A stretch of 64,000 nucleotides of DNA from Candidatus Aenigmatarchaeota archaeon. Lineage in GTDB: Archaea; Aenigmatarchaeota; Aenigmatarchaeia; PWEA01. Positions within the stretch are counted from its first letter, which is position 1, and the number at the start of each line of letters is the position of its first letter. This document shows positions 33,108 to 48,002 of this stretch, in pieces. The stretch spans positions 6,895 to 70,894 of the forward strand of contig PWHK01000020.1 of assembly GCA_003554845.1 (NCBI GenBank), in the 5' to 3' direction. A program made the position numbers and the translations under genes. The notes under the pieces were generated by a model. The model saw only the letters and a list, made by a program, of their open reading frames with translations, was not told where the DNA came from and did not search any database.

Positions 33108-33116
33108 CCTAAGAAA

Positions 33117-33887
33117 TTATTCTACAGATTCACGATGGCCGTCGCTGTATTCTTCATCATCGGATGATTCATTGTCCCTGCGTTTGTTCTTTGTTATCTT
33201 CGGGAGAAACTCCTTGAAGGCCTTTTCCAGTGAACTCACCCTCGATCCAATACCTTCAAGACGGGAAGAAACATCGTCTATATCATATTCTATTTCTTCT
33301 AAATTATCATCCTGCCTTTCCTTTATACTATCTATCTCATCTCTGAGATCCTCTATCTCAGCAACTATCTCTTCTCTCCCCTCCATAAACTTCTCAAGAT
33401 CCTTCTCCACATTAGACCACTTTTCATCTATTATCTCCTCTACAAGTATCTCGAGCTCTATCTCCTCCTCTTCGGTCATGAAAGCCTCGGTTTGTGGAGA
33501 CGGGGGAGTCCTGCTACCACGCTGTCCACCTCCCTGGTTTGAAAAAGACGAAGACGGCTGGGGAGCAACAAATGTATTTTCAGAAAAATCGTTGGCTGGC
33601 TCAGACCTATCAGCAGGAGCCTCTTCGTCAAGTTTCGGTGATCTGCGGGCAACCTGTGATTCACCAGTAGAACTTGAAACCTTGTTTTTGAGTACCTTGT
33701 TCATGCTCCTCTCTATCCTGTCGTTCGGATACCCCATACTCTTGAGTTCATTTATTATCTCCATCTCCGAATAGCCCTGGGAAGCAAGCCTCCTGACCTC
33801 TCCACTAGGCGATCCTAAACCAGAAGAATCAAAACTATCGTCCTTGTCACTTTCTCCGTCCTTACTCTTACCAAAACCAAGAACCAT
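33117..33887 (-). CDS. hypothetical acidic coiled-coil protein
   Basis: 256 aa. Ser-rich N-terminus and strongly acidic coiled-coil C-terminus. Confidence 0.4.
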   Translation of the reverse strand: MVLGFGKSKDGESDKDDSFDSSGLGSPSGEVRRLASQGYSEMEIINELKSMGYPNDRIERSMNKVLKNKVSSSTGESQVARRSPKLDEEAPADRSEPANDFSENTFVAPQPSSSFSNQGGGQRGSRTPPSPQTEAFMTEEEEIELEILVEEIIDEKWSNVEKDLEKFMEGREEIVAEIEDLRDEIDSIKERQDDNLEEIEYDIDDVSSRLEGIGSRVSSLEKAFKEFLPKITKNKRRDNESSDDEEYSDGHRESVE

Positions 33888-33892
33888 GTTAC

Positions 33893-34294
33893 CTACTTCC
33901 TCTTTTGAAGCTCTTCTTTAATAAGTCTTTTCACTTCGTCCTCGGTAACAAACTCCGTTTCCATAGGTGAAAGAAGGTTTATGAAATTCTTTACCTCTTC
34001 GAACTCGGCCCTCCTGGGAACATCCTCAAGTCTATCCTTTATCTTTGGTATCTTGTTCTCTATCTTGAGTATTCTCATGAGAAGTTCATCCAGACCGTCC
34101 TTTACCTTTTCTATATCGTCTCTTTCCCTGTCCTCGAGATCCATTATTCTGTCCTCGAGGGATCTCAATGCAGTTTCCACAGACTTGTTTTCCCTTTCAA
34201 CGTCTCTCAGCCGCCTTGAATTGCCCTTGACCCTTTCGAGAAGCTCCCGTACAATTTCCCTGAGACCTTGATCATCCGCCTCACCAAAAGCCAT
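33893..34294 (-). CDS. hypothetical coiled-coil protein
   Basis: 133 aa. Heptad-like charged pattern. Confidence 0.4.
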   Translation of the reverse strand: MAFGEADDQGLREIVRELLERVKGNSRRLRDVERENKSVETALRSLEDRIMDLEDRERDDIEKVKDGLDELLMRILKIENKIPKIKDRLEDVPRRAEFEEVKNFINLLSPMETEFVTEDEVKRLIKEELQKRK

Positions 34295-34305
34295 AGTATC
34301 AGTTT

Positions 34306-34333
34306 ACTTTATTAGAACTTTACTTAATAAAGT
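34306..34333. promoter_or_regulatory. inverted repeat ACTTTATTA-N10-TAATAAAGT in the divergent intergenic region
   Basis: Perfect 9-bp arms seen directly, between the divergently transcribed 33893-34294 (-) and 34393 (+) genes. Confidence 0.35.
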
Positions 34334-34392
34334 TAGAGGGAAACGAAACTTTTAGAAACTACCCCTACAAAAGATAAACATAGGACCATGCT

Positions 34393-36675
34393 GTGGTTAA
34401 AATGCCATGTGATTATGAATACAACGAAAAGGAAAACAAGATAGAAGTAAACTGTTCGGGCTGTATATACGGCAGTAGCGTTGCCGACTACGAAGAATGC
34501 ATGGCAAATACAATCGACAAGATTCTCAAAGTCAAGGGAGTAGAGTCGGTGGTATTCAAGAACAGCCGTGAGTACGAGTACCCCTACGAACAGACAAGAA
34601 TTCTAGTGGAAATAGCAGAGGTTCTGGAAGACATAATGAAAGACAAGGGACTGAGGAAGCTTGAACGTATGGATGCACCGGGCTGTAGCCAGTACTTCAG
34701 GGAAAAATACTCTGAGCTCCAGAACATTGTACTTGAGGAGTTCACTAAGGATCCCATAGGAACTTACATAAGGCTGAAGAGGAAGTTGAGGCACATCCGT
34801 ATTCAGATGAAAGAAAACAAGGGTGGTCCCCAGAACAACTGCAGAAAGAAATACCTCGAAGAGATACTCATACCGATAAAAGAAGAGATAGAAAACACAA
34901 GGATGATACAGGGTGTAAAGGACCAGCTCTCCGGATACCGGCCCGGGAGAAGGGATGCATACAGAGAACTTTTCTATCCTTCCGTAAGGCCAAACTTCAT
35001 GCGAACAAAGTATATGAGACAGGCCCCTGAAAGTGGAAAGAAGTTGGAGCACTACAACATAGGAAGTTCCGATGTGGACATATACGATCTCCCGGATGAA
35101 ACAAGACCCATGTACCACTTTTCTCCACCGGAGTTCAAACTCGAAGAGGAGGAGTACAAGATACTAGACGAGGCTCAGAGATACCTCAGTGAACACAGAC
35201 CACAGACAACAGAATTTGCCGACTCAAAGAGAACAAGAGAAGTATTTTCTTCTATAGGAAGAGATCTTGTAAAGGATATAGCAAGAAGGAAGAGTGTCGA
35301 TCTTGAAAACGAACAGGTAGAAAGACTAACATCTATACTCGGTAGATACACAGGAGGACTGGGCATACTCGAGGCCATACTCGAAGACGAAAGAATACAG
35401 GACATATACGTGAACTCTCCCATAGGCAGCAAGCCTATATTTGTAAACCATGGAGATTACGGCGAGTGCAAGACAAACATAATTCCAACACAGGACGATG
35501 CAGAAAGCTGGGCAACAAAGTTAAGGCTTTCAAGTGGAAGGCCACTGGACGAGGCCAATCCTGTCCTTGATTCATCTGTAGAAGTACCCGGTGGAAGTGC
35601 AAGAATTACAATAATAGCTCCGACGCTCTCTCCACAAGGAATGGGCTTTGCAATAAGAAGACACAGAGAGGACCCGTGGACATATCCCCTCTACCTGAAG
35701 CCCGATGTAGGCTACTTCAGTCCACTCTTCACCGGTCTGATGAGTTTTGTAATAGACGGTGGAAGAAGTTTTCTTATAGGAGGTGGCAGAGGATCGGGTA
35801 AGACTTCACTCCTTGGAGCTTCCCTCATGGAAATGAAAAAGGACTGGAGAATAATAACAAGCGAAGACACTCTAGAACTTCCTGTAAACAGACTCAGGGA
35901 GCTGGACTACGACGTACAGAACCTAAAATCAAGGTCTGTTATAACACAGGTCGAAACCGAACTTCCTGCATCCGAGGCAATAAGAACAGCCCTCCGTCTT
36001 GGTGACTCTGCTCTCATAATGGGTGAAGTCAGGTCAAAGGAAGCAAAGGCACTCTACGAAGCCATGCGTATAGGAGCCATGGCAAAGACTGTAGCAGGAA
36101 CCATACATGGTGAATCGGCATACGGTCTCTTCGACCGTGTTGTAAACGATCTCAACGTACCGAAGACATCGTTCAAGGCCACCGATCTAATTGTAATATG
36201 TAATAGGATAAAGAGCGCCTCAGGACTCCATGAAATGAGGAGGGTAACAAATGTGACAGAGGTCAGAAAACACTGGTCCGATGATCCAAGGGCAGAAGGA
36301 GGATTTGTTCCCCTAATGGAATATTCGGCAGAAGACGACGAACTAAAGCCTACAAATACACTCCTAAACGGCGAGTCTGAAATTCTCAATAGAATATCTT
36401 CCCAGGTAAAGGACTGGGCAGGAAGGTGGGACAGAGTCTGGGACAATATAGAACTCAGGGCTAAGGTCAAGGAGGCCGTAACGGACTATGCCCTAAAGAC
36501 AGGGAACGAAGAGATTATGGAAGCTCCCTTTGTTGTAAAGAGTAACAGTAAGTTCCGACTTACCATGGACGAAGTAAAGAATGAGATCGGGTATATAGAT
36601 CCTGACGAAACATTCGATAGATGGGAAAAATGGCTCAAGGAGCAGATAAAGACAGGTGAGTTCAAGAATGCCTAA
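34393..36675 (+). CDS. type II/IV secretion-system ATPase (FlaI/ArlI / GspE / TadA family) with long N-terminal extension
   Basis: Walker A GGGRGSGKTS, the following TSEDTLEL box, and Walker B ALIMGEVR, all in the C-terminal half of a 760 aa protein. GTG start. An ATG at 34402 is also possible. Confidence 0.8.
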   Translation: MVKMPCDYEYNEKENKIEVNCSGCIYGSSVADYEECMANTIDKILKVKGVESVVFKNSREYEYPYEQTRILVEIAEVLEDIMKDKGLRKLERMDAPGCSQYFREKYSELQNIVLEEFTKDPIGTYIRLKRKLRHIRIQMKENKGGPQNNCRKKYLEEILIPIKEEIENTRMIQGVKDQLSGYRPGRRDAYRELFYPSVRPNFMRTKYMRQAPESGKKLEHYNIGSSDVDIYDLPDETRPMYHFSPPEFKLEEEEYKILDEAQRYLSEHRPQTTEFADSKRTREVFSSIGRDLVKDIARRKSVDLENEQVERLTSILGRYTGGLGILEAILEDERIQDIYVNSPIGSKPIFVNHGDYGECKTNIIPTQDDAESWATKLRLSSGRPLDEANPVLDSSVEVPGGSARITIIAPTLSPQGMGFAIRRHREDPWTYPLYLKPDVGYFSPLFTGLMSFVIDGGRSFLIGGGRGSGKTSLLGASLMEMKKDWRIITSEDTLELPVNRLRELDYDVQNLKSRSVITQVETELPASEAIRTALRLGDSALIMGEVRSKEAKALYEAMRIGAMAKTVAGTIHGESAYGLFDRVVNDLNVPKTSFKATDLIVICNRIKSASGLHEMRRVTNVTEVRKHWSDDPRAEGGFVPLMEYSAEDDELKPTNTLLNGESEILNRISSQVKDWAGRWDRVWDNIELRAKVKEAVTDYALKTGNEEIMEAPFVVKSNSKFRLTMDEVKNEIGYIDPDETFDRWEKWLKEQIKTGEFKNA

Positions 36676-38731
36676 GGACCCGAAAAAGGGGGATGGTTAT
36701 CCCAAGGAAGAAGGTCTGAGGATGCCTGAAAACAAGGAGAGGAGTTTCAAATCGAGGGAATATGAGACATTTCTAGAAGAGGAAAGAGAGCAGAAAAAAC
36801 TTTCGATATATGAAAAAATGTGCAATATTTCTGAGAATATAATCGTTGTGGAACCAGACGAGGAAAAGAAGAAGGAGATAGAACGATCAATAAACATGAC
36901 GTATATGAACATCACTCCGGCGGGCGCCTATTCCTTTGCTATCTTATTCGGAACCGCCATCTTTGTTATTTCGATAATGCTGATGATACTCGGTATTGCT
37001 TCGATGGTATTCGGCATTCTCATGTTCGTACTGGGTGCCGTTTCTATATATCTTCTTTCAGAATATCCCAACTCACAGGCCAGGTTATTCCGTGTAAAGG
37101 CAGCCGATCAGATAATGCTTGCTATAATCTATATGGTTATCTACATGAGAACTTCCCCTAATCTCGAAGGAGCCATAAAGTTTACTGCTAAGCATCTTGG
37201 TGAACCACTATCCATGGACTTCAAAAAACTACTATGGGATGTAGAAACAGGTAACTATATATCGATGAGAGAAGCCCTTGGAGACTATCTCGAAAAGTGG
37301 GAAGACAACAAGGCATTTGTAGAATCAGTCCAGATAATTCAGGACTCCATGCAACAGACAGGAGAAAAAAGGAAGAGAATGCTCGACGAAGCAATAAACA
37401 CTATGATGACAGGATCCAGGGAGATGATGAAAAACTACTCGAATAAACTCGAGCTTCCTGTGCTCGTAATACATGCCCTTGGTATAATGCTTCCTATCAT
37501 GGTCCTAATAATGTTTCCTATAATAATGCTGATGTTAGAAGAAACCATAAGACCTGCGTTCCTTATAATAGGATACAACATTGTCCTGCCTCTCATAATA
37601 TACCTAACAGGAAAAAGAACTCTGGAGTACAGGCCCATGGGATTTTCGGAGCCGGATATATCAAAACATCCTGATCACATTCCCTCTGGAATGATAAACA
37701 TCGGAGGTAAGGAGATAAAGATATGGCCTATATCTGTTCTTCTGTCGGTTCCTGTAATACTTATAGGAATATACCTGGTCAATTTCTATGGAGGTGGGGA
37801 CATATCAACCCAACTCTACACATCTCTATTCATAACCCTTGGAATAGCCCTGGGCCCTTCGACCTACTTCTATCTGGACTCAAGTGCCAAGCTGAAGCTA
37901 AGAAAGGAGGTGAAGGACATAGAAGATGAGTTTTCAGAATCTCTTTTCTCTCTGGGCAACATACTCAATCTCGGCAAGCCCATGGAAAGAGCTTTGGAAG
38001 AAACTGCAGTAAAAAATAAAGACATGGACATATCAAATATGTTCGAAATAGTTGTAAACAATATCAAAAAAGGTGGCATGAACATAAGAAGAGCCTTTTT
38101 TGACAATAAGTATGGGGCTGTGTGGCATTATCCATCGAATCTCATAATATCCGTCATGAAAATAGTTATGGATGCAGCAGAGAAGGGCTCGGATGTAGTT
38201 TCCAGATCAACTATATCCATATCAAAGTATCTACAGCAGCTCGATGAGATAGAAGAAGATCTTAAGAACATGCTCTCGTCTGAAACCACTTCCATGCAGT
38301 TTCTGGGAACATTTTTGGGGCCCTTCGTAGCAGGAGTTTCTGTGGCCATGGCTGCTATAATGATATCAATATTCCACGGCGTGGGTGGTTCATTGGATGC
38401 ACTGGCAGGACCAAGGACTTCACCAGGAGTAGGTGGAATCGGCGGGATGGGGCTCAATGAAGGTCTGGTAGGTGGATGGGGCTCGGCGGAAAATATGATA
38501 CCTATACCATGGATACAGGTAGTCGTAGGTCTCTACGCTATTCAGACATCCTACCTTCTATCGATGCTGACATCCGGTATAGAAAACGGACCGGGTGATG
38601 AGATCAAAAAAAGACGTAATGCAGCCATAATGATTTTGATAGGTGTAGTAGTTTACGGTCTTTCGATAGCCGTTGTTTGGGAGATCTTCGGAGGACAGAT
38701 TTCAGGACTTCTGTCTGCTACTATAAACTAA
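36656..38731 (+). CDS. polytopic membrane platform protein (FlaJ/TadC-like, T2SS-F-like) - tentative
   Basis: 691 aa with about 9-10 TM helices and cytoplasmic loops. Overlaps the ATPase gene by 20 nt. Assignment rests on genomic context and topology. Confidence 0.5.
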   Translation: MSSRMPKDPKKGDGYPKEEGLRMPENKERSFKSREYETFLEEEREQKKLSIYEKMCNISENIIVVEPDEEKKKEIERSINMTYMNITPAGAYSFAILFGTAIFVISIMLMILGIASMVFGILMFVLGAVSIYLLSEYPNSQARLFRVKAADQIMLAIIYMVIYMRTSPNLEGAIKFTAKHLGEPLSMDFKKLLWDVETGNYISMREALGDYLEKWEDNKAFVESVQIIQDSMQQTGEKRKRMLDEAINTMMTGSREMMKNYSNKLELPVLVIHALGIMLPIMVLIMFPIIMLMLEETIRPAFLIIGYNIVLPLIIYLTGKRTLEYRPMGFSEPDISKHPDHIPSGMINIGGKEIKIWPISVLLSVPVILIGIYLVNFYGGGDISTQLYTSLFITLGIALGPSTYFYLDSSAKLKLRKEVKDIEDEFSESLFSLGNILNLGKPMERALEETAVKNKDMDISNMFEIVVNNIKKGGMNIRRAFFDNKYGAVWHYPSNLIISVMKIVMDAAEKGSDVVSRSTISISKYLQQLDEIEEDLKNMLSSETTSMQFLGTFLGPFVAGVSVAMAAIMISIFHGVGGSLDALAGPRTSPGVGGIGGMGLNEGLVGGWGSAENMIPIPWIQVVVGLYAIQTSYLLSMLTSGIENGPGDEIKKRRNAAIMILIGVVVYGLSIAVVWEIFGGQISGLLSATIN

Positions 38732-38779
38732 AGGAGCAAAACAATAAAAACAAGGTAAAATAAGGTTTATCTGGACCCT

Positions 38780-40009
38780 ATGAAACCTCTAAACGACCAG
38801 AAAGGATCTTCTGTCCTTATTATAATAGTAGTCGGGGTAATAATTATACTCATAGCAGGCAGCCTTGCGACTGTGATGATGAGTCGTATTGCCCAGGACG
38901 TGCTTGGACAAAGTGTCATGTGTGATACTTTTTGTGAGATGCAGTCCACTGTAGAAGAAGTGACAACACTGGATTTTATGCCAAGTCATGGTCCAACCGG
39001 TACATTCATTTTTACACTGGGGTTGGGACCGGCGGGATTAGCTGGATCCAAAGTATGGAACTGGATAGTAGGAGAAGTAGGAAGAGATAGAGAAGATGTT
39101 GCAAGGGATCTGGCAATAGATTACCTAATCCGACCCGAAGGCATGGGTTGTTACTGTGGCGTGTCCGATGCCAGAGGAAAGTATATACACTTTCTGACAC
39201 CCGGTCCTAGCTCAACCAGGCCACATGTGGCCGAGTTCCACCTAACAGAACAGACTCCGGAAAAACATCTCCAAGAAGAGATAATAGATACAGATGGAAA
39301 CACTATATTCAAACACGGTGGTTATGGCCAAAAAAGTAACTGTGAAGATGAACTTAGTAAGATAGATGAACTTGACAACGGTGAGTACTTGGCCGAACTC
39401 GATATATATCCCGGATGTATAATACTTTCAACCACCGATGACAACTGTGCAATATGGGCATTCGATGAAACCTTCGCAATAACCAACGAAGAAGGAAAGT
39501 CCATAAGGGAACAGGCCGAAGAACAGGATAAAATCATATTCGCTAGCACGATAAGGTCCGATGACCCCGTAAACAGCCTGGGTATTGCAGAAGAGATAGA
39601 GGCAAGTGGCAGACACGACTCCCAGAGGATGCTCCTCGAGCATTACGAAGAGGGTATACACCCCTTCCAGGTTTACTTACCTGTGGTCTGTAAATCAGAG
39701 GAAAGAACTGAAAGACGTGTCCAGGATCCACTTGACAGGGCATGTAGAGAACAGTGCCATGACGGAAACACACTTCTATGGGCTTCCAGGTGTTTCGAAG
39801 GACCAGAAGATGCCGGAGAAATCTACCGTCCTCTGGAGGAAGATTTTCTTCCGGAAGACTATGATGAAACCAGGGACCTGTGCCCTGTGGAAGACGATGA
39901 AAATGAAGAGGAAGAAAGTAACGACGAAGATCGTGGTTATCCCTTCTGCCTCTGTAACACTCCCCGAAGTTATTCATGGGAACTAGATGAAGAATACACA
40001 GAGATATGA
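38780..40009 (+). CDS. class III (prepilin-like) signal peptide protein, large cysteine-rich paralog 1
   Basis: MKPLNDQKG|SSVLIIIVVGVIIIL. Shares GCYCGV, HDSQRMLL, PVVCKS, RACREQC and PFCLC ... YSWE motifs with 40033 and 41282. Confidence 0.55.
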   Translation: MKPLNDQKGSSVLIIIVVGVIIILIAGSLATVMMSRIAQDVLGQSVMCDTFCEMQSTVEEVTTLDFMPSHGPTGTFIFTLGLGPAGLAGSKVWNWIVGEVGRDREDVARDLAIDYLIRPEGMGCYCGVSDARGKYIHFLTPGPSSTRPHVAEFHLTEQTPEKHLQEEIIDTDGNTIFKHGGYGQKSNCEDELSKIDELDNGEYLAELDIYPGCIILSTTDDNCAIWAFDETFAITNEEGKSIREQAEEQDKIIFASTIRSDDPVNSLGIAEEIEASGRHDSQRMLLEHYEEGIHPFQVYLPVVCKSEERTERRVQDPLDRACREQCHDGNTLLWASRCFEGPEDAGEIYRPLEEDFLPEDYDETRDLCPVEDDENEEEESNDEDRGYPFCLCNTPRSYSWELDEEYTEI

Positions 40010-40032
40010 TATCTTGAATTTTTGTGATGTAA

Positions 40033-41136
40033 ATGATTGACGAAAAAGGCAGTTCATTTCTATTCATAATAGTTGTAGCTATAATCTTATCTCTGATCGT
40101 TGGTTCTTTAATTACAGGTGCATTTGCTATGACAGTAAGGACTGTGGTCGGAACCGATCTTTCCTGTCCGACCTTCTGTGCAGTTCAAGCAGACATAGAG
40201 GAATACAGCATGGCAGATATAATGCTACCATCCGTACTACCATTCATAGAGGAAAGCTCGGATGGAATTGCCCATAAAGTAGCAGACTGGATAATACAGC
40301 CAGAAGGACTCGGTTGTTACTGTGGTGTCAAAGAAAGAAGTGGAAGATACATTCATTTTCACACAGGTCCTCCTGGAGAAAGGTCAATAAGAGAACTTCA
40401 CTTGACGGATCAGGACCCACACATACATCTCGACTATCATGTCGGGGATTCCGATGGAAACACATTATTCGACCACAGCTTCGACAAGAGCAACTGCGAG
40501 GAAGACATAAACAGTTTAAAAGAGGTACAGTACTACCAAGACGTCGGCTGTGTAATCGTGGTTAACTCCGACGGAGGATACTGCTCTATACATGTAATAG
40601 GAGAAGGTTCGGTTATAGAAAACAACATAGGTGAAAGTATACAGGATCAGGTTGAAATCAGGGAAACATTAACGACAAACTACGACGAAAACGATCCTAT
40701 TTCGTTTTTTGAAATCGGCGACAGATACAACGTACCTCGATTTGTACATGAAGAAGGAGATATTCTAACATACACGATAGGAGGCCAGCCCTACCAGCAC
40801 GACTCCCAGAGGATGCTCCTCCGGGACTACGACGAATACCTAGGAGCTAAGTTCGCTCTCTATGCTCCTGTTGTCTGCAGAACCTCGGTAGCAGAAGGAC
40901 AGGAAGTTCAGACAAAACTTGATGAAAAATGCAGAGAACAGTGCAAAGAAGACAGGAAGATTTTTCTGTCTTCTGCATGCCATGATATTCCCAGGGAAGG
41001 ATACAAACCGCTACGTGATGAACACCACGAAGAAGACACTTTCTGTGAAAAGGAGGGTAAAGGTCCGTACTGCAGATGTATGCACGAGAAACGGTACTAC
41101 TGGGAGGTAGACGAGGATTATTCGAGAGAAAACTAA
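40033..41136 (+). CDS. class III signal peptide protein, large cysteine-rich paralog 2
   Basis: MIDEKG|SSFLFIIVVAIIL. Same conserved Cys framework. Confidence 0.55.
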   Translation: MIDEKGSSFLFIIVVAIILSLIVGSLITGAFAMTVRTVVGTDLSCPTFCAVQADIEEYSMADIMLPSVLPFIEESSDGIAHKVADWIIQPEGLGCYCGVKERSGRYIHFHTGPPGERSIRELHLTDQDPHIHLDYHVGDSDGNTLFDHSFDKSNCEEDINSLKEVQYYQDVGCVIVVNSDGGYCSIHVIGEGSVIENNIGESIQDQVEIRETLTTNYDENDPISFFEIGDRYNVPRFVHEEGDILTYTIGGQPYQHDSQRMLLRDYDEYLGAKFALYAPVVCRTSVAEGQEVQTKLDEKCREQCKEDRKIFLSSACHDIPREGYKPLRDEHHEEDTFCEKEGKGPYCRCMHEKRYYWEVDEDYSREN

Positions 41137-41168
41137 AAAATAAAAAACAAAATATATTGAATGATACC

Positions 41169-41282
41169 ATGGAAGCAAATATTTCGGTCCTGCTCTGGGT
41201 GATGGTAGCTTTTGTCCTATTTGCACTTTTGGTTGTATTTACTGCCATGTTCTTTGCCGATACATTTGGGATTTTGATATAA
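41169..41282 (+). CDS. small hydrophobic ORF (37 aa, MEANISVLLWVMVAFVLFALLVVF ...)
   Basis: Single TM helix. Its TAA stop overlaps the ATG of the next gene (TAATG). Confidence 0.3.
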   Translation: MEANISVLLWVMVAFVLFALLVVFTAMFFADTFGILI

Positions 41283-42571
41283 TGAAAAACAACATGATCA
41301 ATCAAAAGGGAGCATCGGTAGTTGCCCTGTTTGTAATAATAATTATAATGGTGAGTGCATGGGTTTTAATACAAAGTATAGGCCCCATAACCAGAGCTTC
41401 TATGGAAACCGAGGTATCATGTCCCCTCTTCTGTGATATACATTCAGGCGTGGAGGAATACTCTAGATGGGCATGGTGGCCTGGGTGGCTAGGAGGAAGT
41501 GTAAGCTGGTCCGATATATTTACGAACGAACTCAGAAAAAACATGGTGGAGCCTAAATCAATGGGCTGTTACTGTGGTGTCCAGGAAGAAAGGGGGAAGT
41601 TTATTCACTTCCAGGGAACTACCAGCAGTCTATATGAATTCCACATGACCGATCAGGATCCACTAATGCATCTTCGTATGAAAGCCGATCCGTTTGATCA
41701 CAGACCATCTGATGAATCAACGGTTGAATCATGCCGGTTAGTTGTAGAAAACTACGGAGAACAGTTCAGCCCACCTGTATATGATCCAACCGATCTTCAC
41801 AAGGTTCAGGGATGTATAATTGTTTCTGAATCACCAGGCTGTGCAGTATGGGTATTTGGAGAAGGTTTTTCGATAAGAAGAGATTCAGAGAATTCTATCT
41901 GGGAACAGGCACAGGAACAGGAAAGAGACATAGAAGCCTTTTCCATAGATAGAGGAGAAGACCCTGTTTCAGATCTAAATATAGGCGAAACTATACATGT
42001 CTCGAGTTCAAAGGACCCCTCTCAGAGAATGCTCCTCCGGGAATATGAAAGCGGCGACCGAGATTTCAATCTCTCTACATCCGTGGTATGTAAAAGCATT
42101 GAAACAGCTAAAACAATGCCCACAGATCAACTGGACAGGGCTTGCAACGAATACTGTTCGGACAAGGGTCTCTTCTTTCTAAACTCTGCTTGTCTACAAG
42201 AAAAAAGAAGGGGTTACAATACTCTCCCTGAAGAGTACATAGAACAAGAGAGGAGTGATCTCTGCCCTGAAACAGGAGAACTCCCCTTCTGCCTCTGTGC
42301 TGGTGAAAAGGAATACTACTGGGAAACATACTGGGAAGATTTTTATACAATAACGGTAGAAACCCAGGGTAGTGGAACCGTTGATATCAACCCCGATCTA
42401 GACGAATACTACAGAGGTCAGGGAGTATTACTGGAAGCAGAGGCGGACAACGAATGGGAGTTCAGCCACTGGGAAGGCAACTATCCCACTGGACAAAAAG
42501 AAGATTCGGAGATAACGATAACAGTAGATGGTAACATGGTGCTTAGTGCTGTATTTGAATCAGAGCATTGA
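41282..42571 (+). CDS. class III signal peptide protein, large cysteine-rich paralog 3 (extra C-terminal domain)
   Basis: MKNNMINQKG|ASVVALFVIIII. Carries GCYCGV, PSQRMLL, VVCKS, RACNEYC and PFCLC ... YYWE motifs. Confidence 0.55.
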   Translation: MKNNMINQKGASVVALFVIIIIMVSAWVLIQSIGPITRASMETEVSCPLFCDIHSGVEEYSRWAWWPGWLGGSVSWSDIFTNELRKNMVEPKSMGCYCGVQEERGKFIHFQGTTSSLYEFHMTDQDPLMHLRMKADPFDHRPSDESTVESCRLVVENYGEQFSPPVYDPTDLHKVQGCIIVSESPGCAVWVFGEGFSIRRDSENSIWEQAQEQERDIEAFSIDRGEDPVSDLNIGETIHVSSSKDPSQRMLLREYESGDRDFNLSTSVVCKSIETAKTMPTDQLDRACNEYCSDKGLFFLNSACLQEKRRGYNTLPEEYIEQERSDLCPETGELPFCLCAGEKEYYWETYWEDFYTITVETQGSGTVDINPDLDEYYRGQGVLLEAEADNEWEFSHWEGNYPTGQKEDSEITITVDGNMVLSAVFESEH

Positions 42572-42633
42572 GATCCCTCATTAGATTAAAACTTATAACA
42601 CATAGCCAACATGTATAATATGAGGATGTTTGC

Positions 42634-42816
42634 ATGGAAAGAAATTCTAAATATATCTTTTCCAGTGGTGAGATAAGCATACAGGTCGTAATCATAATAA
42701 TACTCATGTTGATAGGACTCACTGTTGTCCTTATAATATCATCCGGTGTCGGTGGTTTTGGAACAAATGTATCATCGAATATAATGGGATATCTAGCAGA
42801 TGCTATAGGTGCATGA
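42634..42816 (+). CDS. small pilin-like protein (60 aa)
   Basis: Short polar N-terminus then a long hydrophobic helix. Confidence 0.35.
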   Translation: MERNSKYIFSSGEISIQVVIIIILMLIGLTVVLIISSGVGGFGTNVSSNIMGYLADAIGA

Positions 42817-42818
42817 AA

Positions 42819-42971
42819 ATGGAATACGATAAAAAAGGTTTTATAAGTATAATTATGCTTCTGATCATAGCACTTGTGGCACTATCGGTGGGTCTTATGC
42901 TTATACATGCCTTTTGGGGAGGCGGAGGAGGCTTGTTGAATCTACTCATTCAGAGACTCCAAATGGTATAG
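42819..42971 (+). CDS. small pilin-like ORF (about 50 aa, MEYDKKG|FISIIMLLIIALV)
   Basis: Translated by hand. KKG-hydrophobic class III-like start. Not in the supplied track (under 60 aa). Confidence 0.3.
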   Translation: MEYDKKGFISIIMLLIIALVALSVGLMLIHAFWGGGGGLLNLLIQRLQMV

Positions 42972-42979
42972 GTGAAAAA

Positions 42980-43126
42980 ATGTCTATATTCAACGATACG
43001 CTTATAATTTTTCAAAAAAACACAAAGATAATATTCGCCTTAATAGTTTTTGCCCTTCTTATAGGTATACTTTACTACACAATAAATCCTCTGATAGACA
43101 CGTTAATGGGGGCTATAGGTTATTGA
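42980..43126 (+). CDS. small membrane ORF (48 aa)
   Basis: MSIFNDTLIIFQKNTKIIFALIVFALLIGILYY ... Confidence 0.3.
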   Translation: MSIFNDTLIIFQKNTKIIFALIVFALLIGILYYTINPLIDTLMGAIGY

Positions 43127-43127
43127 T

Positions 43128-43844
43128 ATGAACATAATCAACAAGAAGGGTTCAAGATCGCAGAGCGAGTTCATATTTCTTGCAATAAAGGCAGTAATAG
43201 GTATCTTGGCTATAGGTGTTATTGCATTGAGTGTCAGGGGCATGGAGACAGGCTGTAGTACACATGACGAAAATCCATCGGCATGTATAAGCAATACAGA
43301 ATGCAGACCTGCGGTCAGAAGAGAAAAAAGCACATTTTCTATACCTGTTGATATTATGCGGTCTGTAGATATAGTCTATCATACAGAAATAACCGGCGAT
43401 ATAGAATGTCGGGATTCCATAAGGACTCCCAACAACAGATACCACGCCGCAGAGGATGCTCAGTGTGTCTGTCCTGTTGGGTGGGAAGTAATTTTAGACA
43501 GAGAAGATCAGTACTATGGAGTCTGTAGGCTACCAGGAACCAACAACTATCACCCATGTGAGTATCCACCCGACGGCGAACGACAGGAAACAGAATTCAA
43601 AGACATGTGTGAAGATGGAGATAGATACCACGGAGAAGTCTGGATCGACGGAACAGATGAAGAAGCTCCAAATATGTGCTGCGATGATGGAGATACAAAA
43701 GAGTGTGACTCCGATAACATAGATGAAAAATGTGGTGATCTGGTCTGTATTGAAATAGAGGTTGAAGTCGAAGACGGAGAAGAGGAAGAAATCACTTTCT
43801 GGATAGATGAAGAGAGTGTACCTGATATAGAATACATAATTTAA
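43128..43844 (+). CDS. class III signal peptide protein, cysteine-rich mid-size paralog A
   Basis: MNIINKKG|S ... GCSTHDENPSACISNTECRPAV and YHGEVW ... CCDDGDTKEC shared with 43872. Confidence 0.5.
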   Translation: MNIINKKGSRSQSEFIFLAIKAVIGILAIGVIALSVRGMETGCSTHDENPSACISNTECRPAVRREKSTFSIPVDIMRSVDIVYHTEITGDIECRDSIRTPNNRYHAAEDAQCVCPVGWEVILDREDQYYGVCRLPGTNNYHPCEYPPDGERQETEFKDMCEDGDRYHGEVWIDGTDEEAPNMCCDDGDTKECDSDNIDEKCGDLVCIEIEVEVEDGEEEEITFWIDEESVPDIEYII

Positions 43845-43871
43845 AATACACAAAATAAAAAATGAAGCAGA

Positions 43872-44528
43872 ATGTTTTCAAAAAAAGGTACTGCTAAATC
43901 ACAGGAAGAAACACTTTGGTTTATAATCAAGATAGCTATAGTAATCATAGGATTTGTAATTCTAATTGTTGCTTTTCTTAGGATGGAGGCAGGCTGTAGC
44001 AGGCATGATGAAAATCCATCGGCATGTATAAGCGACGAGAGCTGTAGACCTGCAGTTAAAGAGGTGGACTCAGGATGGGACATATATGCATCACTGTATG
44101 GATCATACCGAACGGAAGTGGTGGGTAAGATAGAGTGCAAAGAATCCGTAAGAAAACCTGATACAAGACACCACGCAGCCCATGATGGAAAATGTATATG
44201 CCCGGGTTTCTGGGAAGAAATTATAGACAGAAATCATGACTACTTCGGTGTATGCTATACTGATTACAATGGAGAAGAAATGTACTATCCTTGTCAGTAT
44301 GGCCTAAATGTTCAGGTCGAGGAAATAAAGGACAGTTGCGAAAGCGTTGAAAAATACCACGGAGAAGTATGGGGCTCCGGTTGGAATACCCCCGATAGAT
44401 GTTGCGATGACGGCGAAGTAAAGAAATGTAATATACTCAACAGTGGTGAAACTTGCGCAGACTATACATGCAGATCTGGCCCAGCCAAGCATCAGGTTGT
44501 CGATATCCAGTACTACTGGCAGCCATAA
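43872..44528 (+). CDS. class III signal peptide protein, cysteine-rich mid-size paralog B
   Basis: MFSKKG|T ... GCSRHDENPSACISDESCRPAV and YHGEVW ... CCDDGEVKKC. Confidence 0.5.
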   Translation: MFSKKGTAKSQEETLWFIIKIAIVIIGFVILIVAFLRMEAGCSRHDENPSACISDESCRPAVKEVDSGWDIYASLYGSYRTEVVGKIECKESVRKPDTRHHAAHDGKCICPGFWEEIIDRNHDYFGVCYTDYNGEEMYYPCQYGLNVQVEEIKDSCESVEKYHGEVWGSGWNTPDRCCDDGEVKKCNILNSGETCADYTCRSGPAKHQVVDIQYYWQP

Positions 44529-44572
44529 ACTGCAGTGCACCTTTCAAAAAGATTTAAACAAACACAACAAAG

Positions 44573-44995
44573 TTGTATACGATGAACACCCCAGCAAAGG
44601 GCATAGGCGTAGGAAAATCCCTTACGTTAATACTGATACTGGTTATTCTCTTGTTTACAACCGTCTTAATAGGTGATATATTTACATCCGTGCTTGGTAT
44701 GGGCGTAGGAGATGAGTTCCACATTACAATGGGAGAATTATCTGTATCCTACACTACATCTAGCTCTTTTCAGGAAAAAACTGTTATAGAAGAAAATCTT
44801 CCGATGGCCTGCGAAAAAGTTGTATTTAGAAACAGCACACTAAAGGCCTACCTGGAACATGATGAATTTTACTTTATACCATATACCACACAAGAAATGG
44901 ATAAAGACTTTGAGGTGGAATGTGATTCCTTTGGTAGGGTAAAGTTTATTGACGGAAGGATAGAATCATCTAGCCCTGTCGCTGGAACATTTTAA
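44573..44995 (+). CDS. pilin-like protein (140 aa)
   Basis: MYTMNTPAKG|IGVGKSLTLILILVILLF. Confidence 0.45.
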   Translation: MYTMNTPAKGIGVGKSLTLILILVILLFTTVLIGDIFTSVLGMGVGDEFHITMGELSVSYTTSSSFQEKTVIEENLPMACEKVVFRNSTLKAYLEHDEFYFIPYTTQEMDKDFEVECDSFGRVKFIDGRIESSSPVAGTF

Positions 44996-44997
44996 TT

Positions 44998-45888
44998 ATG
45001 GTGCATAAAATGAAAAACAAAGGAACAACCGGAGGAGACTACATATGGCAGATACTGTTTGTTATAGTAACGATAACCTATCTTGGTGCCTTTTATGTTA
45101 TATTTATAGCCGGTTCAACAGTAGATGTCGAAGGTTTTGAAAGAACCCAGGGAAGACTACAGAGTTCCGCTGCCCACACCAGACTTTTGTCACATCCCGA
45201 TTTTATTTCTACAGGAGAGATCGGCGTATTCGATGAATCACTTCTCAATTCCAAGAACGGCACAGAGAAGCTAGAAGAACTCTACAACCCATCGCTCTGG
45301 ATTTATGTAGAGATAGAAAACATGGAAAACGACGATAAATACATATTTGGTACACCCGGGCCCCTGAAAGCAACGGAAGGATGGTTGACTGAGGATGGGA
45401 ATATGGATACATGGGAAGATGAAGAAATGAGTTCCTGGGATCACGTGGTCGGTAGATACAGTACATTAGTAAACATAGACACCGGCGACGGATTCGATCT
45501 AGCTAAACTATATCTTTACTTCCGGCAGATACCCGACCCTATGATAAAGTTAAAGGAGGGTATTCATATAGCCAGGGAAGAAGGAAGCCATACAGTTACA
45601 CTTTTGCACCCAATCGCGATATGCTGGGAGTACGACTACACGCTATCGGGAAGATACTGCTCAGAAGACGAAGATTCCTTTTCAATAGACGTAAGCCACT
45701 CAGATAAAATAAAGGGTAGTTTTGGTGGATACATGCACCTGAAAGACGTAGAGTTGAAGGCATTCAACGAGGAAGAGGAAAAGTTCGAGATAGACCCGCC
45801 CGGTAGGTTCACGGATGGAAAAATAGACATAGAACTTGCTCATACCGGCGGTAAAACGGTAGAATATGAAATAGTTGACAGATGGTAA
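44998..45888 (+). CDS. pilin-like protein (296 aa)
   Basis: MVHKMKNKG|TTGGDYIWQILFVIVTITYLGAF. Confidence 0.45.
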   Translation: MVHKMKNKGTTGGDYIWQILFVIVTITYLGAFYVIFIAGSTVDVEGFERTQGRLQSSAAHTRLLSHPDFISTGEIGVFDESLLNSKNGTEKLEELYNPSLWIYVEIENMENDDKYIFGTPGPLKATEGWLTEDGNMDTWEDEEMSSWDHVVGRYSTLVNIDTGDGFDLAKLYLYFRQIPDPMIKLKEGIHIAREEGSHTVTLLHPIAICWEYDYTLSGRYCSEDEDSFSIDVSHSDKIKGSFGGYMHLKDVELKAFNEEEEKFEIDPPGRFTDGKIDIELAHTGGKTVEYEIVDRW

Positions 45889-46420
45889 AATGAAAAAATT
45901 AATCGGTAGAAAGGGTGGCTTTATGGTCTTGTTAGCCACGCTTATATTCACCGCCGTGTTCTTAATTACTCTGTTTATAGTCGGTCCCTTTATAGGAGGG
46001 GCGCAGATGGAAATAGAAGTAATGTCAGAAAATCCCGCCGGATTCAGCATAGAGAAAAACACACTTCTCAGAACCAATGAAACAAAAAGAAAACTTATGG
46101 CTTTTGGTGAGGGAGATGAATCAGTAGACGAATCCATCGCCAGGACAAGCGACAAATTCGGTGGGACCTATTCGGATTCCCATATACTACTTTTTAGGTT
46201 CGAAAAGGATGATGATGTAGAGATAGTCGGTTTTTCGTGTTCGGATGGATGTGGATACATAGAAGGATATGAAGAAGAGATGGATATTATCTTAAAAAAT
46301 TCAGAAGTAGTAGCACCGAGACCCATAATGTTACCAAAAGGCAAGATGGGATCCTCATATTCTGTCTACTTCAACCCCGAGGAAATGGCCGCACGGGTTA
46401 TGCAAGGCACACAATATTAA
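45875..46420 (+). CDS. pilin-like protein (181 aa)
   Basis: GRKG|GFMVLLATLIFTAVFLITLFIV. Overlaps the previous gene by 14 nt. Confidence 0.45.
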   Translation: MTDGKMKKLIGRKGGFMVLLATLIFTAVFLITLFIVGPFIGGAQMEIEVMSENPAGFSIEKNTLLRTNETKRKLMAFGEGDESVDESIARTSDKFGGTYSDSHILLFRFEKDDDVEIVGFSCSDGCGYIEGYEEEMDIILKNSEVVAPRPIMLPKGKMGSSYSVYFNPEEMAARVMQGTQY

Positions 46421-46427
46421 TGATAAA

Positions 46428-46985
46428 ATGTTAGGAAACAAGGGATTGAAAATTACGATATTAGTTTTCTCGGCAGTATTGATAGGCGTTACCTTAGCAA
46501 CAGCGGTAGTTGTGGGTGTAATGACGTACCACGGAGAGGAACAGTCCTGGTTCGGACAGGGTGAAAGAGTTACAGCAAAGGTCCAGTACGATCATGCACT
46601 GGGTGCAGTAGAAGATTCGTTTTTACTGGGTATATACTGGGGTATACAGGAATCAGGCAATGACTGGGAAAATGCAGAAGAATCCATCGAGGAAGAAATA
46701 GAAGAAAAAATAAAGCATTATTTGGATAGGATAGAAGGTTTTTACGAAGGTAGTTATGATACGCAACCCATCTATCTTGAAACAAGAATACGGATCGATG
46801 ATGTTGAAATTGAATTATACTTAGACGAAGAAACCATAGACAGTGTAAAGATGTCAGGTAATATGACTTCCTACAGGAACCAGCCCTCGATAGCAATATC
46901 CGATGATTTTTACATCGAAGAAAACTTCCAGGAAAACTACTCAACGCTCTATGATATGTCAAATAATCCATTAGAAAATATGTAA
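46428..46985 (+). CDS. pilin-like protein (185 aa)
   Basis: MLGNKG|LKITILVFSAVLIGVTLA. Confidence 0.45.
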   Translation: MLGNKGLKITILVFSAVLIGVTLATAVVVGVMTYHGEEQSWFGQGERVTAKVQYDHALGAVEDSFLLGIYWGIQESGNDWENAEESIEEEIEEKIKHYLDRIEGFYEGSYDTQPIYLETRIRIDDVEIELYLDEETIDSVKMSGNMTSYRNQPSIAISDDFYIEENFQENYSTLYDMSNNPLENM

Positions 46986-47020
46986 ATTTTATAAGAAAGG
47001 GAGGGTCATTTAACATTAAG

Positions 47021-48001
47021 ATGAAGGAAAAGGGGTTCATGTTTGGAATAACACCGGTCGTTCTTTTAATCCTAGGTGGTTTGGTCGTGCTTGTATTTTC
47101 CGTGGGATCGGGAACCTTTTTGGAAATTTCTGAAGGTCTTATAGATGTAGGAGAGGAGGAGGCAAGAAGGGTCCACAGGAGATTTAAATATCCTATCTTG
47201 AGACATGAACTTCCAGAGGAAGGATTTCCCGATGAAGGATCGGGACAGGTTGTGACCTCCTGTAGATCCATAGGATCAGAGGGTTCTTATCAACTACAGG
47301 ACTCTATAGAATGCCCTGATCACGAACCAATCGAAGAGTTCAGGGGAACGCTGGATGGCCGTGGACATGAAATATCCGATCTAAATGTACCTCTATTTGA
47401 AATGATATCATCGGAGGGCACTGTGAAAAACATTAGAGTTTCAGGGGTGGATATACATCAAGAAGACTCCGCAGGCGGTCTTTCGGTGACAAACCAAGGA
47501 ACAGTTGAAAGGGTACATGTTTCCGGAACAGTTCAGGGCGGAAGCTATGTTGGTGGCCTTACTGGAATAAACAGTGGAAATATAAGGAAATCTTCCTCCA
47601 CGGCAGACGTAGGTGGAACAATCAATGTAGGAGTACTGGTAGGACAACATACCTCCGGCTCCGTAATAAATTCATATACGATCGGTTCTGTAAAAGGCAT
47701 ATCAAATGTAGGCGGATTAATAGGTTCTGGAAGTGGAGAAGTAGATAAAACATATGCAGCCAGTTATGTAGATGGTTCTACCAATGTACAAGGGTTGGTA
47801 GGATCTGGTTCTGCCAATTCAGTTAAAAACTCCTTCTGGAGCACTGACACATCTGGAATTCTCCCTGAAGAAATTTCTGGGAGTATTATAGGAACGCCGA
47901 AAGTCGACGAAGCCATGGAAGACAAGGAAATCTATGTTTCCACGAGAACGGATGGTCTAGAAGAGCCATGGGACTTCGATGAAATATGGACCATGGGGTA
48001 A
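47021..48001 (+). CDS. pilin-like protein with GLUG-type glycine-rich repeats
   Basis: MKEKG|FMFGITPVVLLILGG. Then about four ~27-aa repeats containing GGLTG / GGLIG / QGLVG, ending FWSTDTSG, as in GLUG-motif surface proteins. Confidence 0.55.
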   Translation: MKEKGFMFGITPVVLLILGGLVVLVFSVGSGTFLEISEGLIDVGEEEARRVHRRFKYPILRHELPEEGFPDEGSGQVVTSCRSIGSEGSYQLQDSIECPDHEPIEEFRGTLDGRGHEISDLNVPLFEMISSEGTVKNIRVSGVDIHQEDSAGGLSVTNQGTVERVHVSGTVQGGSYVGGLTGINSGNIRKSSSTADVGGTINVGVLVGQHTSGSVINSYTIGSVKGISNVGGLIGSGSGEVDKTYAASYVDGSTNVQGLVGSGSANSVKNSFWSTDTSGILPEEISGSIIGTPKVDEAMEDKEIYVSTRTDGLEEPWDFDEIWTMG

Positions 48002-48002
48002 A

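Follow-up and report, generated by a model that had tools for sequence, protein, structure and literature searches.

Three paralogous cysteine-rich proteins with prepilin-like N-termini in a type IV filament locus of an uncultured Aenigmatarchaeota archaeon

Bacterial type II secretion systems and type IVa pili carry minor-pilin tip complexes (GspI-GspJ-GspK and FimU-PilVWX-PilY1, respectively), each regarded as a single heteromeric module for priming or capping the filament, with an extra domain in its largest member. To our knowledge, the secretin and the alignment complex are absent from Archaea. Archaeal loci for type IV filaments often contain minor pilins restricted to a lineage, as well as large adhesin-like proteins bearing class III signals, and some of these accessory proteins have conserved cysteines that are thought to form disulfides (PMC4858521; bioRxiv 10.64898/2026.04.22.720090). 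Our comparison was based on the census of Makarova et al. 2016 (PMC4858521) and on the 'system 2' loci of Sivabalasarma & Albers 2026 (bioRxiv 10.64898/2026.04.22.720090).

The DNA analyzed here is a 64-kb stretch (the window) from an uncultured soda-lake DPANN archaeon, Candidatus Aenigmatarchaeota. An earlier note had singled out three plus-strand open reading frames of 409, 367 and 429 amino acids (aa) as large paralogous pilin-like proteins; all three, here called p1, p2 and p3, were recovered at the same positions and lengths. They lie in the following locus:

30384-33107, plus strand: five polytopic membrane proteins, all small, of which at least four look like paralogues by eye (30384-34294 is the conserved part upstream)
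33117-34294, minus strand: two coiled-coil proteins (same conserved upstream part)
34393-36675, plus strand: type IV filament secretion ATPase, 760 aa, with a T2SSE domain at about residues 290-700
36656-38731, plus strand: polytopic platform protein, TadC/FlaJ/PilC-like, 691 aa, overlapping the end of the ATPase gene
38780-40009, plus strand: p1, 409 aa, clade 1; leader MKPLNDQKG followed by SSVLIIIVVGVIIILIAG, a hydrophobic helix, 14 cysteines, pI 4.3
40033-41136, plus strand: p2, 367 aa, clade 2; leader MIDEKG followed by SSFLFIIVVAIILSLIVG, 14 cysteines; the copy modeled with AF2
41169-41282, plus strand: conserved micro-ORF between p2 and p3, 37 aa, single transmembrane (TM) segment (MEANISVLLWVMVAFVLFALLVVFTAMFFADTFGILI)
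41282-42571, plus strand: p3, 429 aa, clade 3; leader MKNNMINQKG followed by ASVVALFVIIIIMVSAWV, 14 cysteines
42344-42562, plus strand: add-on domain of p3, PF18998 Flg_new_2, a divergent InlB B-repeat
42634-43126, plus strand: three tiny single-TM proteins of 60, 52 and 48 aa
43128-44528, plus strand: a second cysteine-rich pilin-like paralogue pair (the q pair), 238 and 218 aa, 14 cysteines each
44573-49358, plus strand: about ten more genes with a [KR]G and hydrophobic N-terminus
47021-48001, plus strand: Peptidase_M26_N/GLUG adhesin-type repeat protein, 326 aa, within the preceding run
59641-60380, minus strand: two stand-alone paralogues of 111 and 113 aa, 8 cysteines each, beginning MKKG and then ISLPVNMLVILAVAVIVL

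The genes p1-p3 lie directly downstream of the ATPase and platform genes on the same strand and are followed by at least 13 further genes with a K-G and hydrophobic N-terminus. The ATPase, which carries a long N-terminal extension with a four-cysteine cluster, matches T2SSE in Pfam (E = 7.7e-14) and FlaI and TadA in NCBIfam (E = 3.5e-40 and 1.3e-33), while the platform protein matches T2SSF at E = 3.5e-5 with 24.2 bits, just below the cut-off of 25.2, and its orthologues are also weak T2SSF matches. This arrangement resembles the described archaeal filament loci in its operon with a VirB11-type ATPase bearing a long N-terminal extension and a single TadC/FlaJ-like platform, in its many adjacent pilin-like genes and in its large accessory proteins, some of them cysteine-bearing. 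The micro-ORF is annotated as a 37-aa gene in locus L007 and retains its C-terminal F-x-[DE]-x-FGI motif in L011, L007 and L005; the trio of tiny single-TM proteins, the middle one of which has a K-K-G and hydrophobic N-terminus, comes after the family members in every locus. Several further pilin-like proteins of this organism are likewise rich in cysteine. The two q proteins are 44% identical to each other, and hhalign found no similarity between them and the p family beyond the KKG N-terminus. The 111- and 113-aa paralogues are candidates for the major pilins of the system.

Alignment with MAFFT bears out the paralogy of p1-p3, which share 34-39% identity over their full length (p2 and p3 each 39% to p1) and 82 invariant columns, including 14 of cysteine; a family profile that has p1-p3 among its own members scores them at E = 1e-119 to 1e-131. 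Relative to their orthologues in L011, dN/dS is 0.21 (p1), 0.16 (p2) and 0.16 (p3), a protein identical to p3 exists (P0001) and identical proteins recur on independent assemblies from NCBI, JGI, ENA and Logan. The proteins are thus products of real genes under purifying selection. An artefact, in the sense of non-genes or of chance or low-complexity similarity, has nothing in its favor and is ruled out by the dN/dS of 0.16-0.21, the independent assemblies and the 27 homologous representatives described below. The DNA segment encoding SQRMLL had been described as conserved in all three copies: the 15-mer CAGAGGATGCTCCTC occurs exactly at 39623 (p1) and 40807 (p2) and with one mismatch at 42023 (p3), three matches where 0.01 would be expected by chance.

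A homologue search returned 27 cluster representatives among 1.84 billion proteins, which makes this a very rare family. Unlike the pilins and adhesins of the described archaeal loci, it has named carrier genomes labeled Candidatus Aenigmatarchaeota throughout, with the exception of one short contig in a bacterial bin. Across the recovered loci, the family keeps one slot in the filament operon. Exactly three tandem members are present in L005, L007, L009, L011, L013, L015 and L016, directly after the platform gene in the first three, where upstream genes are present; L017 has two members, L019 one and L020 three, one right after the platform gene and two farther downstream. The ATPase and platform genes also lie directly upstream in L005, L007, L009, L017 and L019. 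Neighbor-joining trees divide the family into three clades, each containing one window copy, and clade corresponds to gene order in the window, L011, L007 and L009. Judging from these trees, the triplication is old, with p1-p3 belonging to three old clades rather than being recent duplicates. Compared with L007, L009 and L005, the ATPase is 76-80% identical but p1-p3 only 33-45%, and p1-p3 keep pace in divergence with the remaining pilin-like proteins, far ahead of the ATPase and platform protein. This low identity, together with an acidic pI (4.3-4.6) and variable add-ons in clade 3, looks like the behavior of surface proteins.

The N-termini of p1-p3 have the form of class III (prepilin) signals of Archaea: after a short, basic leader of 6-10 residues with K-G at its end come at least 18 (about 20) uncharged, hydrophobic residues with a mean Kyte-Doolittle hydropathy of 2.8-3.1. 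In this they resemble the minor pilins and adhesins of archaeal filament loci, which likewise have a short basic leader and then a hydrophobic helix. K-G is retained in nearly all full-length family members. A rule of '[KR]G then uncharged hydrophobic 18-mer' is matched by p1-p3 and 10 other open reading frames at 38780-49358, all on the plus strand, and by five in the rest of the 64 kb. The residues past K-G are SSVLI, SSFLF and ASVVA in p1, p2 and p3, respectively, with Glu5 absent; p1-p3 had no Pfam or NCBIfam match to GspH/I/J/K, PilV/W/X or TadE/F, and at 367-429 aa they far exceed typical pilin size. Prepilin processing stays a prediction because a search for GxGD-type motifs, combined with Pfam scans of membrane proteins, found no prepilin peptidase of the A24/FlaK/PibD type in the window or the recovered loci. 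On the strength of sequence and context, the pilin-like assignment of the earlier note nevertheless holds up, drawing on the K-G leader and helix, the ATPase and platform neighbors and the predicted helix-plus-head shape.

Most of the motif framework proposed for the three proteins is found at the same positions in each, namely CxxFC, P-x-x-x-GCYCGV, [KR][YF]IHF, SQRMLL, VVC[KR][ST], D-x-x-C-x-E-x-C, P[FY]C[LR]C and Y[YS]WE; two elements need correction, since PVVC is absent from p3 (SVVC) and LCP from p2 (FCE). The estimate of about 14 conserved cysteines proved exact, with 14 in each protein and every one in an aligned column. Eight of these make up the core found family-wide, and the other six belong to an inserted mini-domain about 60 residues long. 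All 14 cysteine columns and four histidine columns are invariant among the nine close members, and the 27 cluster representatives retain one cysteine/histidine framework. Family members have 8, 10, 12, 14, 16 or 24 cysteines, with two exceptions (7 and 11), and the count is even in 13/13 cysteine-containing pilin-like proteins of the window versus 17/36 cytoplasmic-type proteins (binomial p = 1.2e-4). Disulfides are favored because the counts are even and because C155 and C184 (p2 numbering) are both missing in P0025, a distant homologue. The suggestion that the heads of p1-p3 are disulfide-rich extracellular domains has thereby gained support, and each probably contains seven disulfides. Two histidines, H108 and H123, are invariant in 33/33 members, while H132 and H148 are kept in 31/33 and are both replaced by leucine in the same two proteins (P0027 and P0030), which suggests a coupled pair. 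A purely structural or adhesive role does not account for these four near-invariant histidines.

An AF2 model of p2, built from 33 sequences (pLDDT 78, pTM 0.74; low confidence at residues 56-75 and around 40-100), has helices at 7-38 and 40-52 followed mostly by strands at 106-359. A long N-terminal helix and a beta-rich head are thus predicted, an architecture like that of pilins. The core shared by 33 members has no match in Pfam, NCBIfam or PHROGs, a profile search of the PDB with the family gave a best E of 0.72 and Foldseek searches with the p2 model gave best E values of 0.37 (PDB) and 0.1 (BFVD). Neither sequence nor structural similarity was found to known pilin, archaellin or minor-pilin families. 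Motifs out of register or a match to a well-described family would have overturned the earlier note; the motifs hold their positions and the core matches no described family. In CS-alpha/beta defensins, a CxxxC in a helix is tied to a CxC in a strand. The family core similarly has CxxxC (C45, C49) where the N-terminal helix ends and CxC (C95, C97) about 45 residues on, but AF2 places C95 and C97 outside strands, in the low-confidence region at 40-100, and the p2 model had no structural match to defensin or toxin folds.

Outside the core, the three clades differ in what they append or insert. The extra C-terminal domain attributed to p3 is indeed present, spanning about 73 aa (residues 355-427), and matches PF18998 over model positions 1-71 of 73 (E = 1.2e-8; 35.2 bits versus a cut-off of 23.6). 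Domains of this type are found on extracellular adhesin-like proteins, both bacterial and archaeal, and by this sequence match the p3 domain is assigned to a known adhesin-type module. The match is confined to the add-on of p3 and its orthologue P0003, with the family core lying outside it, and other clade-3 modules are unrelated: P0011, P0017 and P0018 carry another domain of about 100 aa and P0006 a tail with 10 cysteines. Close to the membrane, clade-1 orthologues (P0002, P0004 and P0005) have, past CxxFC, a hydrophobic hairpin rich in Gly and Ala that spans about 45 residues and survives in p1 just as a shortened remnant (GTFIFTLGLGPAGLAG); Pfam found no PF13488 Gly-zipper_Omp match in p1, and the best in the family, in one or two orthologues, was E = 0.0028. 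In p3, CxxFC is followed by a Trp-rich segment (WAWWPGWLGGSVSW), such an interfacial segment being a feature of clade 3.

Taken against the described systems, p1-p3 are an undescribed family of disulfide-rich surface proteins, new but of a known kind of locus protein. What sets them apart from archaeal filament-locus pilins and adhesins is a fixed, old paralogue trio, an 8 + 6 cysteine framework of their own, four conserved histidines and the lack of sequence or fold likeness to any listed family. As in the bacterial tip complexes, the genes of several distinct pilin-like proteins lie together and the largest protein, p3, has an extra domain; unlike GspI/J/K, p1-p3 are mutually paralogous, no homology to those proteins was detected and a p1-p3 complex is only proposed. 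We consider it somewhat probable that p1-p3 are accessory pilins or adhesins forming a heteromeric part of the filament. In each protein, a prepilin-like N-terminus would lead into a variable segment near the membrane and then into an acidic, beta-rich head with seven disulfides. The N-terminal helix would bring the protein into the membrane, a prepilin peptidase whose gene lies in another part of the genome would trim it after K-G and the ATPase/platform machine would assemble it as an accessory (minor) pilin. The three proteins would interact to form a heteromeric module at the tip or base of the filament, and the rigid, disulfide-stapled heads, with the swappable C-terminal module of p3 (the InlB B-repeat), may touch a surface or host cell.

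A less likely alternative is that p1-p3 are uncleaved, membrane-resident parts of the assembly machine, forming an extracellular collar or stator at the filament base. Their anchor would be the N-terminal helix, aided by the Gly-zipper hairpin or the Trp-rich segment, and their role would be comparable to that of ArlF/ArlG of the archaellum or of bacterial pilus alignment complexes. Members adjoin the platform gene wherever that gene is in the recovered sequence, and their fixed copy number and position-specific clades suggest a defined stoichiometry. Both the clade-1 insertion and the clade-3 Trp segment are close to the membrane and, since they would hinder extraction from it, suit a protein that stays in the membrane better than one carried in the filament; better filament candidates are also present in the tiny K-G proteins and the 111/113-aa pilins. 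However, the K-G and hydrophobic N-terminus of p1-p3 is identical in type to that of their obvious pilin-like neighbors, their divergence is that of pilin-like proteins rather than the much slower divergence of the ATPase and platform, the swappable adhesin-type modules of clade 3 point to a distal, exposed location and no similarity to ArlF/G or known stators was found.

The histidines invite a further reading, which we regard as improbable: the head could be a metal-binding or catalytic ectodomain whose metal or active site consists of the four histidines, with or without cysteines, and which the pilin-like N-terminus merely displays, as the bindosome does with sugar-binding proteins. Their invariance and paired substitution fit such a site, CxxxC and CxC are also typical metal ligands and class III signal proteins outside filaments are known (bioRxiv 10.64898/2026.04.22.720090). 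Yet no enzyme or metalloprotein family or fold was matched, cysteine parity and the paired loss of C155 and C184 point to disulfides and three divergent paralogues kept by a pilus operon make better sense as partners in a structure than as a trio of enzymes. More doubtful still is a thick filament that has one, or all, of p1-p3 as its major subunits. No other pilin-like gene comes earlier after the machinery, the proteins have a pilin-type N-terminus and a predicted helix-and-head shape, and Iho670 of Ignicoccus is reportedly a large pilin of 303 aa; against this, three divergent paralogues are kept side by side, the hydrophobic insertions past helix 1 do not allow the tight packing of helices in a filament core and smaller, more typical major-pilin candidates exist.

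As accessory pilus subunits or adhesins, the reading we prefer, p1-p3 would be a useful addition, yet one to be expected of archaeal pilus loci. A bolder version, which we see as a long shot, would make them a heterotrimer, stapled by disulfides, that caps a pilus specific to DPANN archaea, with two membrane-active elements, the clade-1 hairpin and the clade-3 Trp segment, inserting into or remodeling the host envelope together with the four-histidine site. If true, the family would be the contact device with which these Aenigmatarchaeota attach to a host or open a connection to it.

The window encodes three cysteine-rich pilin-like paralogues, p1, p2 and p3 (copies 1, 2 and 3).

Cysteine-rich pilin-like paralogues in the window
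38780-40009, + strand: p1 (copy 1), ORF of 409 aa
40033-41136, + strand: p2 (copy 2), ORF of 367 aa
41282-42571, + strand: p3 (copy 3), ORF of 429 aa

The three proteins can be aligned end to end, with copies 2 and 3 each sharing 39% identity with copy 1, and the 82 invariant columns of this alignment include all 14 cysteines present in each. The series of motifs described in the earlier note was found at fixed positions, apart from two small exceptions (SVVC for PVVC in copy 3 and FCE for LCP in copy 2). The same note held that the DNA segment encoding SQRMLL is conserved in all three copies; its 15-mer is exact in copies 1 and 2, with one mismatch in copy 3 (three matches versus 0.01 expected). 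It also ascribed an extra C-terminal domain to the third copy; the domain exists and is a known module, the InlB B-repeat (Pfam PF18998). Compared with orthologues in L011, another recovered locus carrying the family, dN/dS was 0.21 for p1, 0.16 for p2 and 0.16 for p3, which marks p1-p3 as coding genes under purifying selection. Independent assemblies from NCBI, JGI, ENA and Logan contain identical proteins. Between p2 and p3, at 41169-41282 (+ strand), is a micro-ORF for a single-TM product of 37 aa; its C-terminal motif, F-x-[DE]-x-FGI-[LA]-[IF], is kept in L011 and two further loci, L007 and L005, and the counterpart in L007 is annotated as a 37-aa gene.

The window matches contigs of a soda-lake sediment metagenome (JGI 3300000557, SL_8KL_010_SED) and the MAG GCA_022257675.1. 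When one genome for each GTDB species was scanned with a 9-sequence alignment, the family turned up in six loci. Five bear the label 'Candidatus Aenigmatarchaeota archaeon'; the other, a contig of 4.9 kb, is assigned to a Syntrophomonadaceae bin, probably through a binning error. A word-indexed search of 5.8 billion clusters returned seven family proteins, and searching 1.84 billion representatives exhaustively with an HMMER profile gave 27 (26 of them at E ≤ 1e-10). Where the source names them, members are called 'hypothetical protein'. A viral or mobile-element origin of the locus was considered and rejected, given the lack of PHROGs matches and the ordinary archaeal housekeeping genes on both window flanks.

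The framework of the family was read from a 33-sequence alignment, with residues numbered as in copy 2. Eight cysteines are family-wide (C45, C49, C95, C97, C155, C173, C184 and C282), Trp357, H108 and H123 are invariant, and 31 of 33 members keep H132 and H148. Eight distant members (243-336 aa) have no residues corresponding to the stretch from C282 to W357; in the long forms it holds all six other cysteines, and it is therefore an inserted mini-domain of ~60 residues. In a profile search of the recovered loci, each full Aenigmatarchaeota locus had exactly three tandem copies; there are two copies in L017 and one in L019, and L020 has three short-form members, one directly after the gene for the platform protein and two further downstream. 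Wherever the upstream genes were recovered, at least one family member lies directly 3' of the platform gene. In neighbour-joining trees, p1, p2 and p3 each fall into a clade of their own (1, 2 and 3), and clade corresponds to gene position in the window, L011, L007 and L009, with L005 and L015 arranged differently. These genomes therefore diverged after the triplication, and the three copies are not interchangeable. Identity to L007, L009 and L005 is 76-80% for the secretion ATPase of the locus but only 33-45% for p1-p3, which have thus diverged fast around a fixed Cys/His frame.

An AF2 model of p2 built from the 33 sequences reached a pLDDT of 78 and a pTM of 0.74, while one built from 9 sequences (pLDDT 62) was too weak for use. 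The model has helices at residues 7-38 and 40-52, a low-confidence linker (56-75) and a mostly beta head, with high confidence at ~100-135, 170-235 and 270-360. Foldseek returned no structural neighbour of this model in PDB (best E 0.37) or BFVD (best E 0.1), and a sequence profile search of PDB gave only noise (MBP fusion constructs, best E 0.72). The core of the family, across 33 members, has no match in Pfam, NCBIfam or PHROGs; the sole domain matches are PF18998 on p3 and its orthologue P0003 and a weak glycine-zipper on orthologues. Judged from the model and its comparison with PDB and BFVD, the head is likely to be a new fold. C-terminal modules differ within clade 3: P0011, P0017 and P0018 carry an unassigned domain of ~100 residues, and P0006 a tail with 10 cysteines.

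Two genes lie directly upstream of p1-p3 on the same strand, one for a secretion ATPase (760 aa) and one for a polytopic protein (691 aa). The former matches Pfam T2SSE (E 7.7e-14) as well as the NCBIfam models FlaI (E 3.5e-40) and TadA (E 1.3e-33), in both cases with a score far short of the equivalog cut-off, and the polytopic platform protein has a borderline match to T2SSF (E 3.5e-5). Downstream follow three tiny single-TM proteins, a second Cys-rich pair and about ten more genes.

Other features of the locus and window
30384-33107, + strand: five consecutive small polytopic membrane proteins, 155-186 aa
33117-34294, - strand: two coiled-coil proteins, 256 and 133 aa, in divergent orientation
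43128-43844 and 43872-44528, + strand: second pilin-like paralogue pair, 14 Cys each, 44% identical, KKG N-terminus
47021-48001, + strand: adhesin-type gene, N-terminus MKEKG followed by FMFGITPVVLLILGG, fused to Peptidase_M26_N/GLUG repeats (E 1.7e-8)
48209-48466 and 48470-48781, + strand: two small proteins at the operon end, 85 and 103 aa, 6 Cys each
59641-59976 and 60039-60380, - strand: stand-alone paralogues, 111/113 aa, 8 Cys each, starting MKKG followed by ISLPVNMLVILAVAVIVL (= MKKG followed by ISLPVNMLVILAVAVIVLLALVAFFMGGF)

An N-terminus was scored as pilin-like if [KR][GA] occurred among the first 25 residues and an uncharged 18-mer with a mean hydropathy of at least 2.0 came no more than 8 residues later. 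This rule matched 18 proteins in the window, of which 13, all on the + strand, lie within 38780-49358; p1-p3 are among these 13, and their N-terminus is of the pilin type. The second Cys-rich pair has no Pfam or NCBIfam match and was rejected as part of the p family, because hhalign aligned only the 8-residue KKG N-terminus (probability 9%). The product of 47021-48001 reads as an adhesin-type domain on a pilin anchor; its L005 orthologue, of 734 aa, has further domains. At least one of the two small proteins at the operon end has a KKG and hydrophobic N-terminus. The five membrane proteins have no family match and are kept 5' of the ATPase in all syntenic loci; by eye, at least four share the motif LPWLLxxAxVYGxLS. 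The coiled-coil pair, which adjoins the ATPase in every locus, the distant L019 included, may encode regulators or cytoplasmic partners of the machine.

The block at ~30384-48001 is syntenic in L005, L007, L009 and L011. Its layout agrees with what has been published on type IV filament loci of the euryarchaeal type in archaea (PMC4858521; bioRxiv 10.64898/2026.04.22.720090): one platform gene, an ATPase extended far at its N-terminus, numerous pilin-like genes, additional membrane proteins and large proteins resembling adhesins. The locus is a complete, conserved and highly divergent type IV filament operon of soda-lake sediment Aenigmatarchaeota, most of which standard annotation leaves hypothetical. 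An archaellum was rejected: archaellin, FlaH, FlaF and FlaG gave no match, and the FlaI model scored 138 against a 550-bit cut-off. No prepilin peptidase was found in the window or the recovered loci, and a scan for sigma-70 promoters and intrinsic terminators, which is not suited to archaea, gave no enrichment. The ATPase extension runs for ~290 residues ahead of the T2SSE domain, and the protein has an N-terminal four-Cys cluster (C6, C21, C24 and C36; 34393-34510, + strand), resembling the variable Cys-rich N-terminal domains of some archaeal secretion ATPases (PMC4858521). Synonymous divergence between the window and L011 (38780-44528) is uneven, being saturated in the ATPase, 1.29 in the platform gene and just 0.38-0.57 in p1, p2 and the first gene of the second Cys-rich pair (43128-43844); either recent recombination of the pilin cassette among related populations or estimation noise could explain this. 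In L019, the distant operon with a single p copy, one downstream protein (13585-15078) has an Amidase_3 (N-acetylmuramoyl-L-alanine amidase) domain; that an archaeal pilus locus encodes an enzyme acting on peptidoglycan would be a hint of a bacterial partner.

Cysteine counts are even (2, 6, 8 or 14) in all 13 Cys-containing pilin-like proteins of the window and in 17 of 36 cytoplasmic-type proteins (binomial p = 1.2e-4), and cysteine content is 3.1% in the former set versus 1.15% in the latter. Family members have 8, 10, 12, 14, 16 or 24 cysteines, with two exceptions (7 and 11), and the only member without C155 also lacks C184. The parity, the content and this joint loss are evidence for disulfides. 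The pairs predicted are C155-C184 and C173-C282, two between C45/C49 and C95/C97, and three inside residues 300-349. Two proteins have Leu in place of both H132 and H148, a pattern suggesting that these histidines act together; they could form a metal site or a buried polar pair.

In our working model, p1-p3 would enter the membrane by the N-terminal helix and be cut after K-G, and the ATPase/platform machine would then build them, as accessory pilins, into a heteromeric module of the filament; external contact would be made by the rigid heads together with the variable C-terminal modules. The main rival is that p1-p3 remain membrane-bound and form a collar or stator around the base of the filament. 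Such a membrane-resident role is the better fit for two segments that follow the CxxFC motif: a ~45-residue Gly/Ala-rich hydrophobic hairpin in clade-1 orthologues, partly deleted in p1 of the window, and, at the same position in clade 3, the Trp-rich segment WAWWPGWLGGSVSW. It is also favoured by the presence of better filament-subunit candidates, namely the middle tiny protein (42813-42971) and the stand-alone 111/113-aa proteins at 59641-60380. Of all candidates for a major pilin in the window, the latter, which lie 10 kb away from the operon, are the most typical. Between them and the operon, at 55317-59189 (+ strand), the translations of three adjacent genes resemble by eye ribose-1,5-bisphosphate isomerase, form III RuBisCO and AMP phosphorylase, which would be the archaeal nucleotide-salvage pathway if these identities are correct.

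DPANN archaea are believed to rely on touching their host cells physically; to our knowledge, the surface molecules behind this contact are almost unknown, and we know of no cultured representative of the Aenigmatarchaeota. By type, p1-p3 belong with the class III signal proteins that archaeal type IV filament loci encode as accessory pilins or adhesin-like proteins, a group described as lineage-specific and often annotated as hypothetical (PMC4858521). As a family they are new, unlike described families or solved folds, with the 8 + 6 cysteines, the four-His framework and the fixed set of three paralogues as features of their own. A genomic survey found type IV pili in Aenigmatarchaeota only in MAGs from thermal habitats (PMC8407114), and the window locus is a divergent type IV system in soda-lake members of the phylum. 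The family offers a profile for finding the operon, a set of candidate host-contact proteins, a probable new fold and a defined Cys/His framework. Nothing is overturned, since an archaeal pilus locus is expected to carry accessory pilins and adhesins peculiar to its lineage; p1-p3 are not surprising, and their use lies in being a candidate device for host contact in a DPANN lineage that is uncultured.
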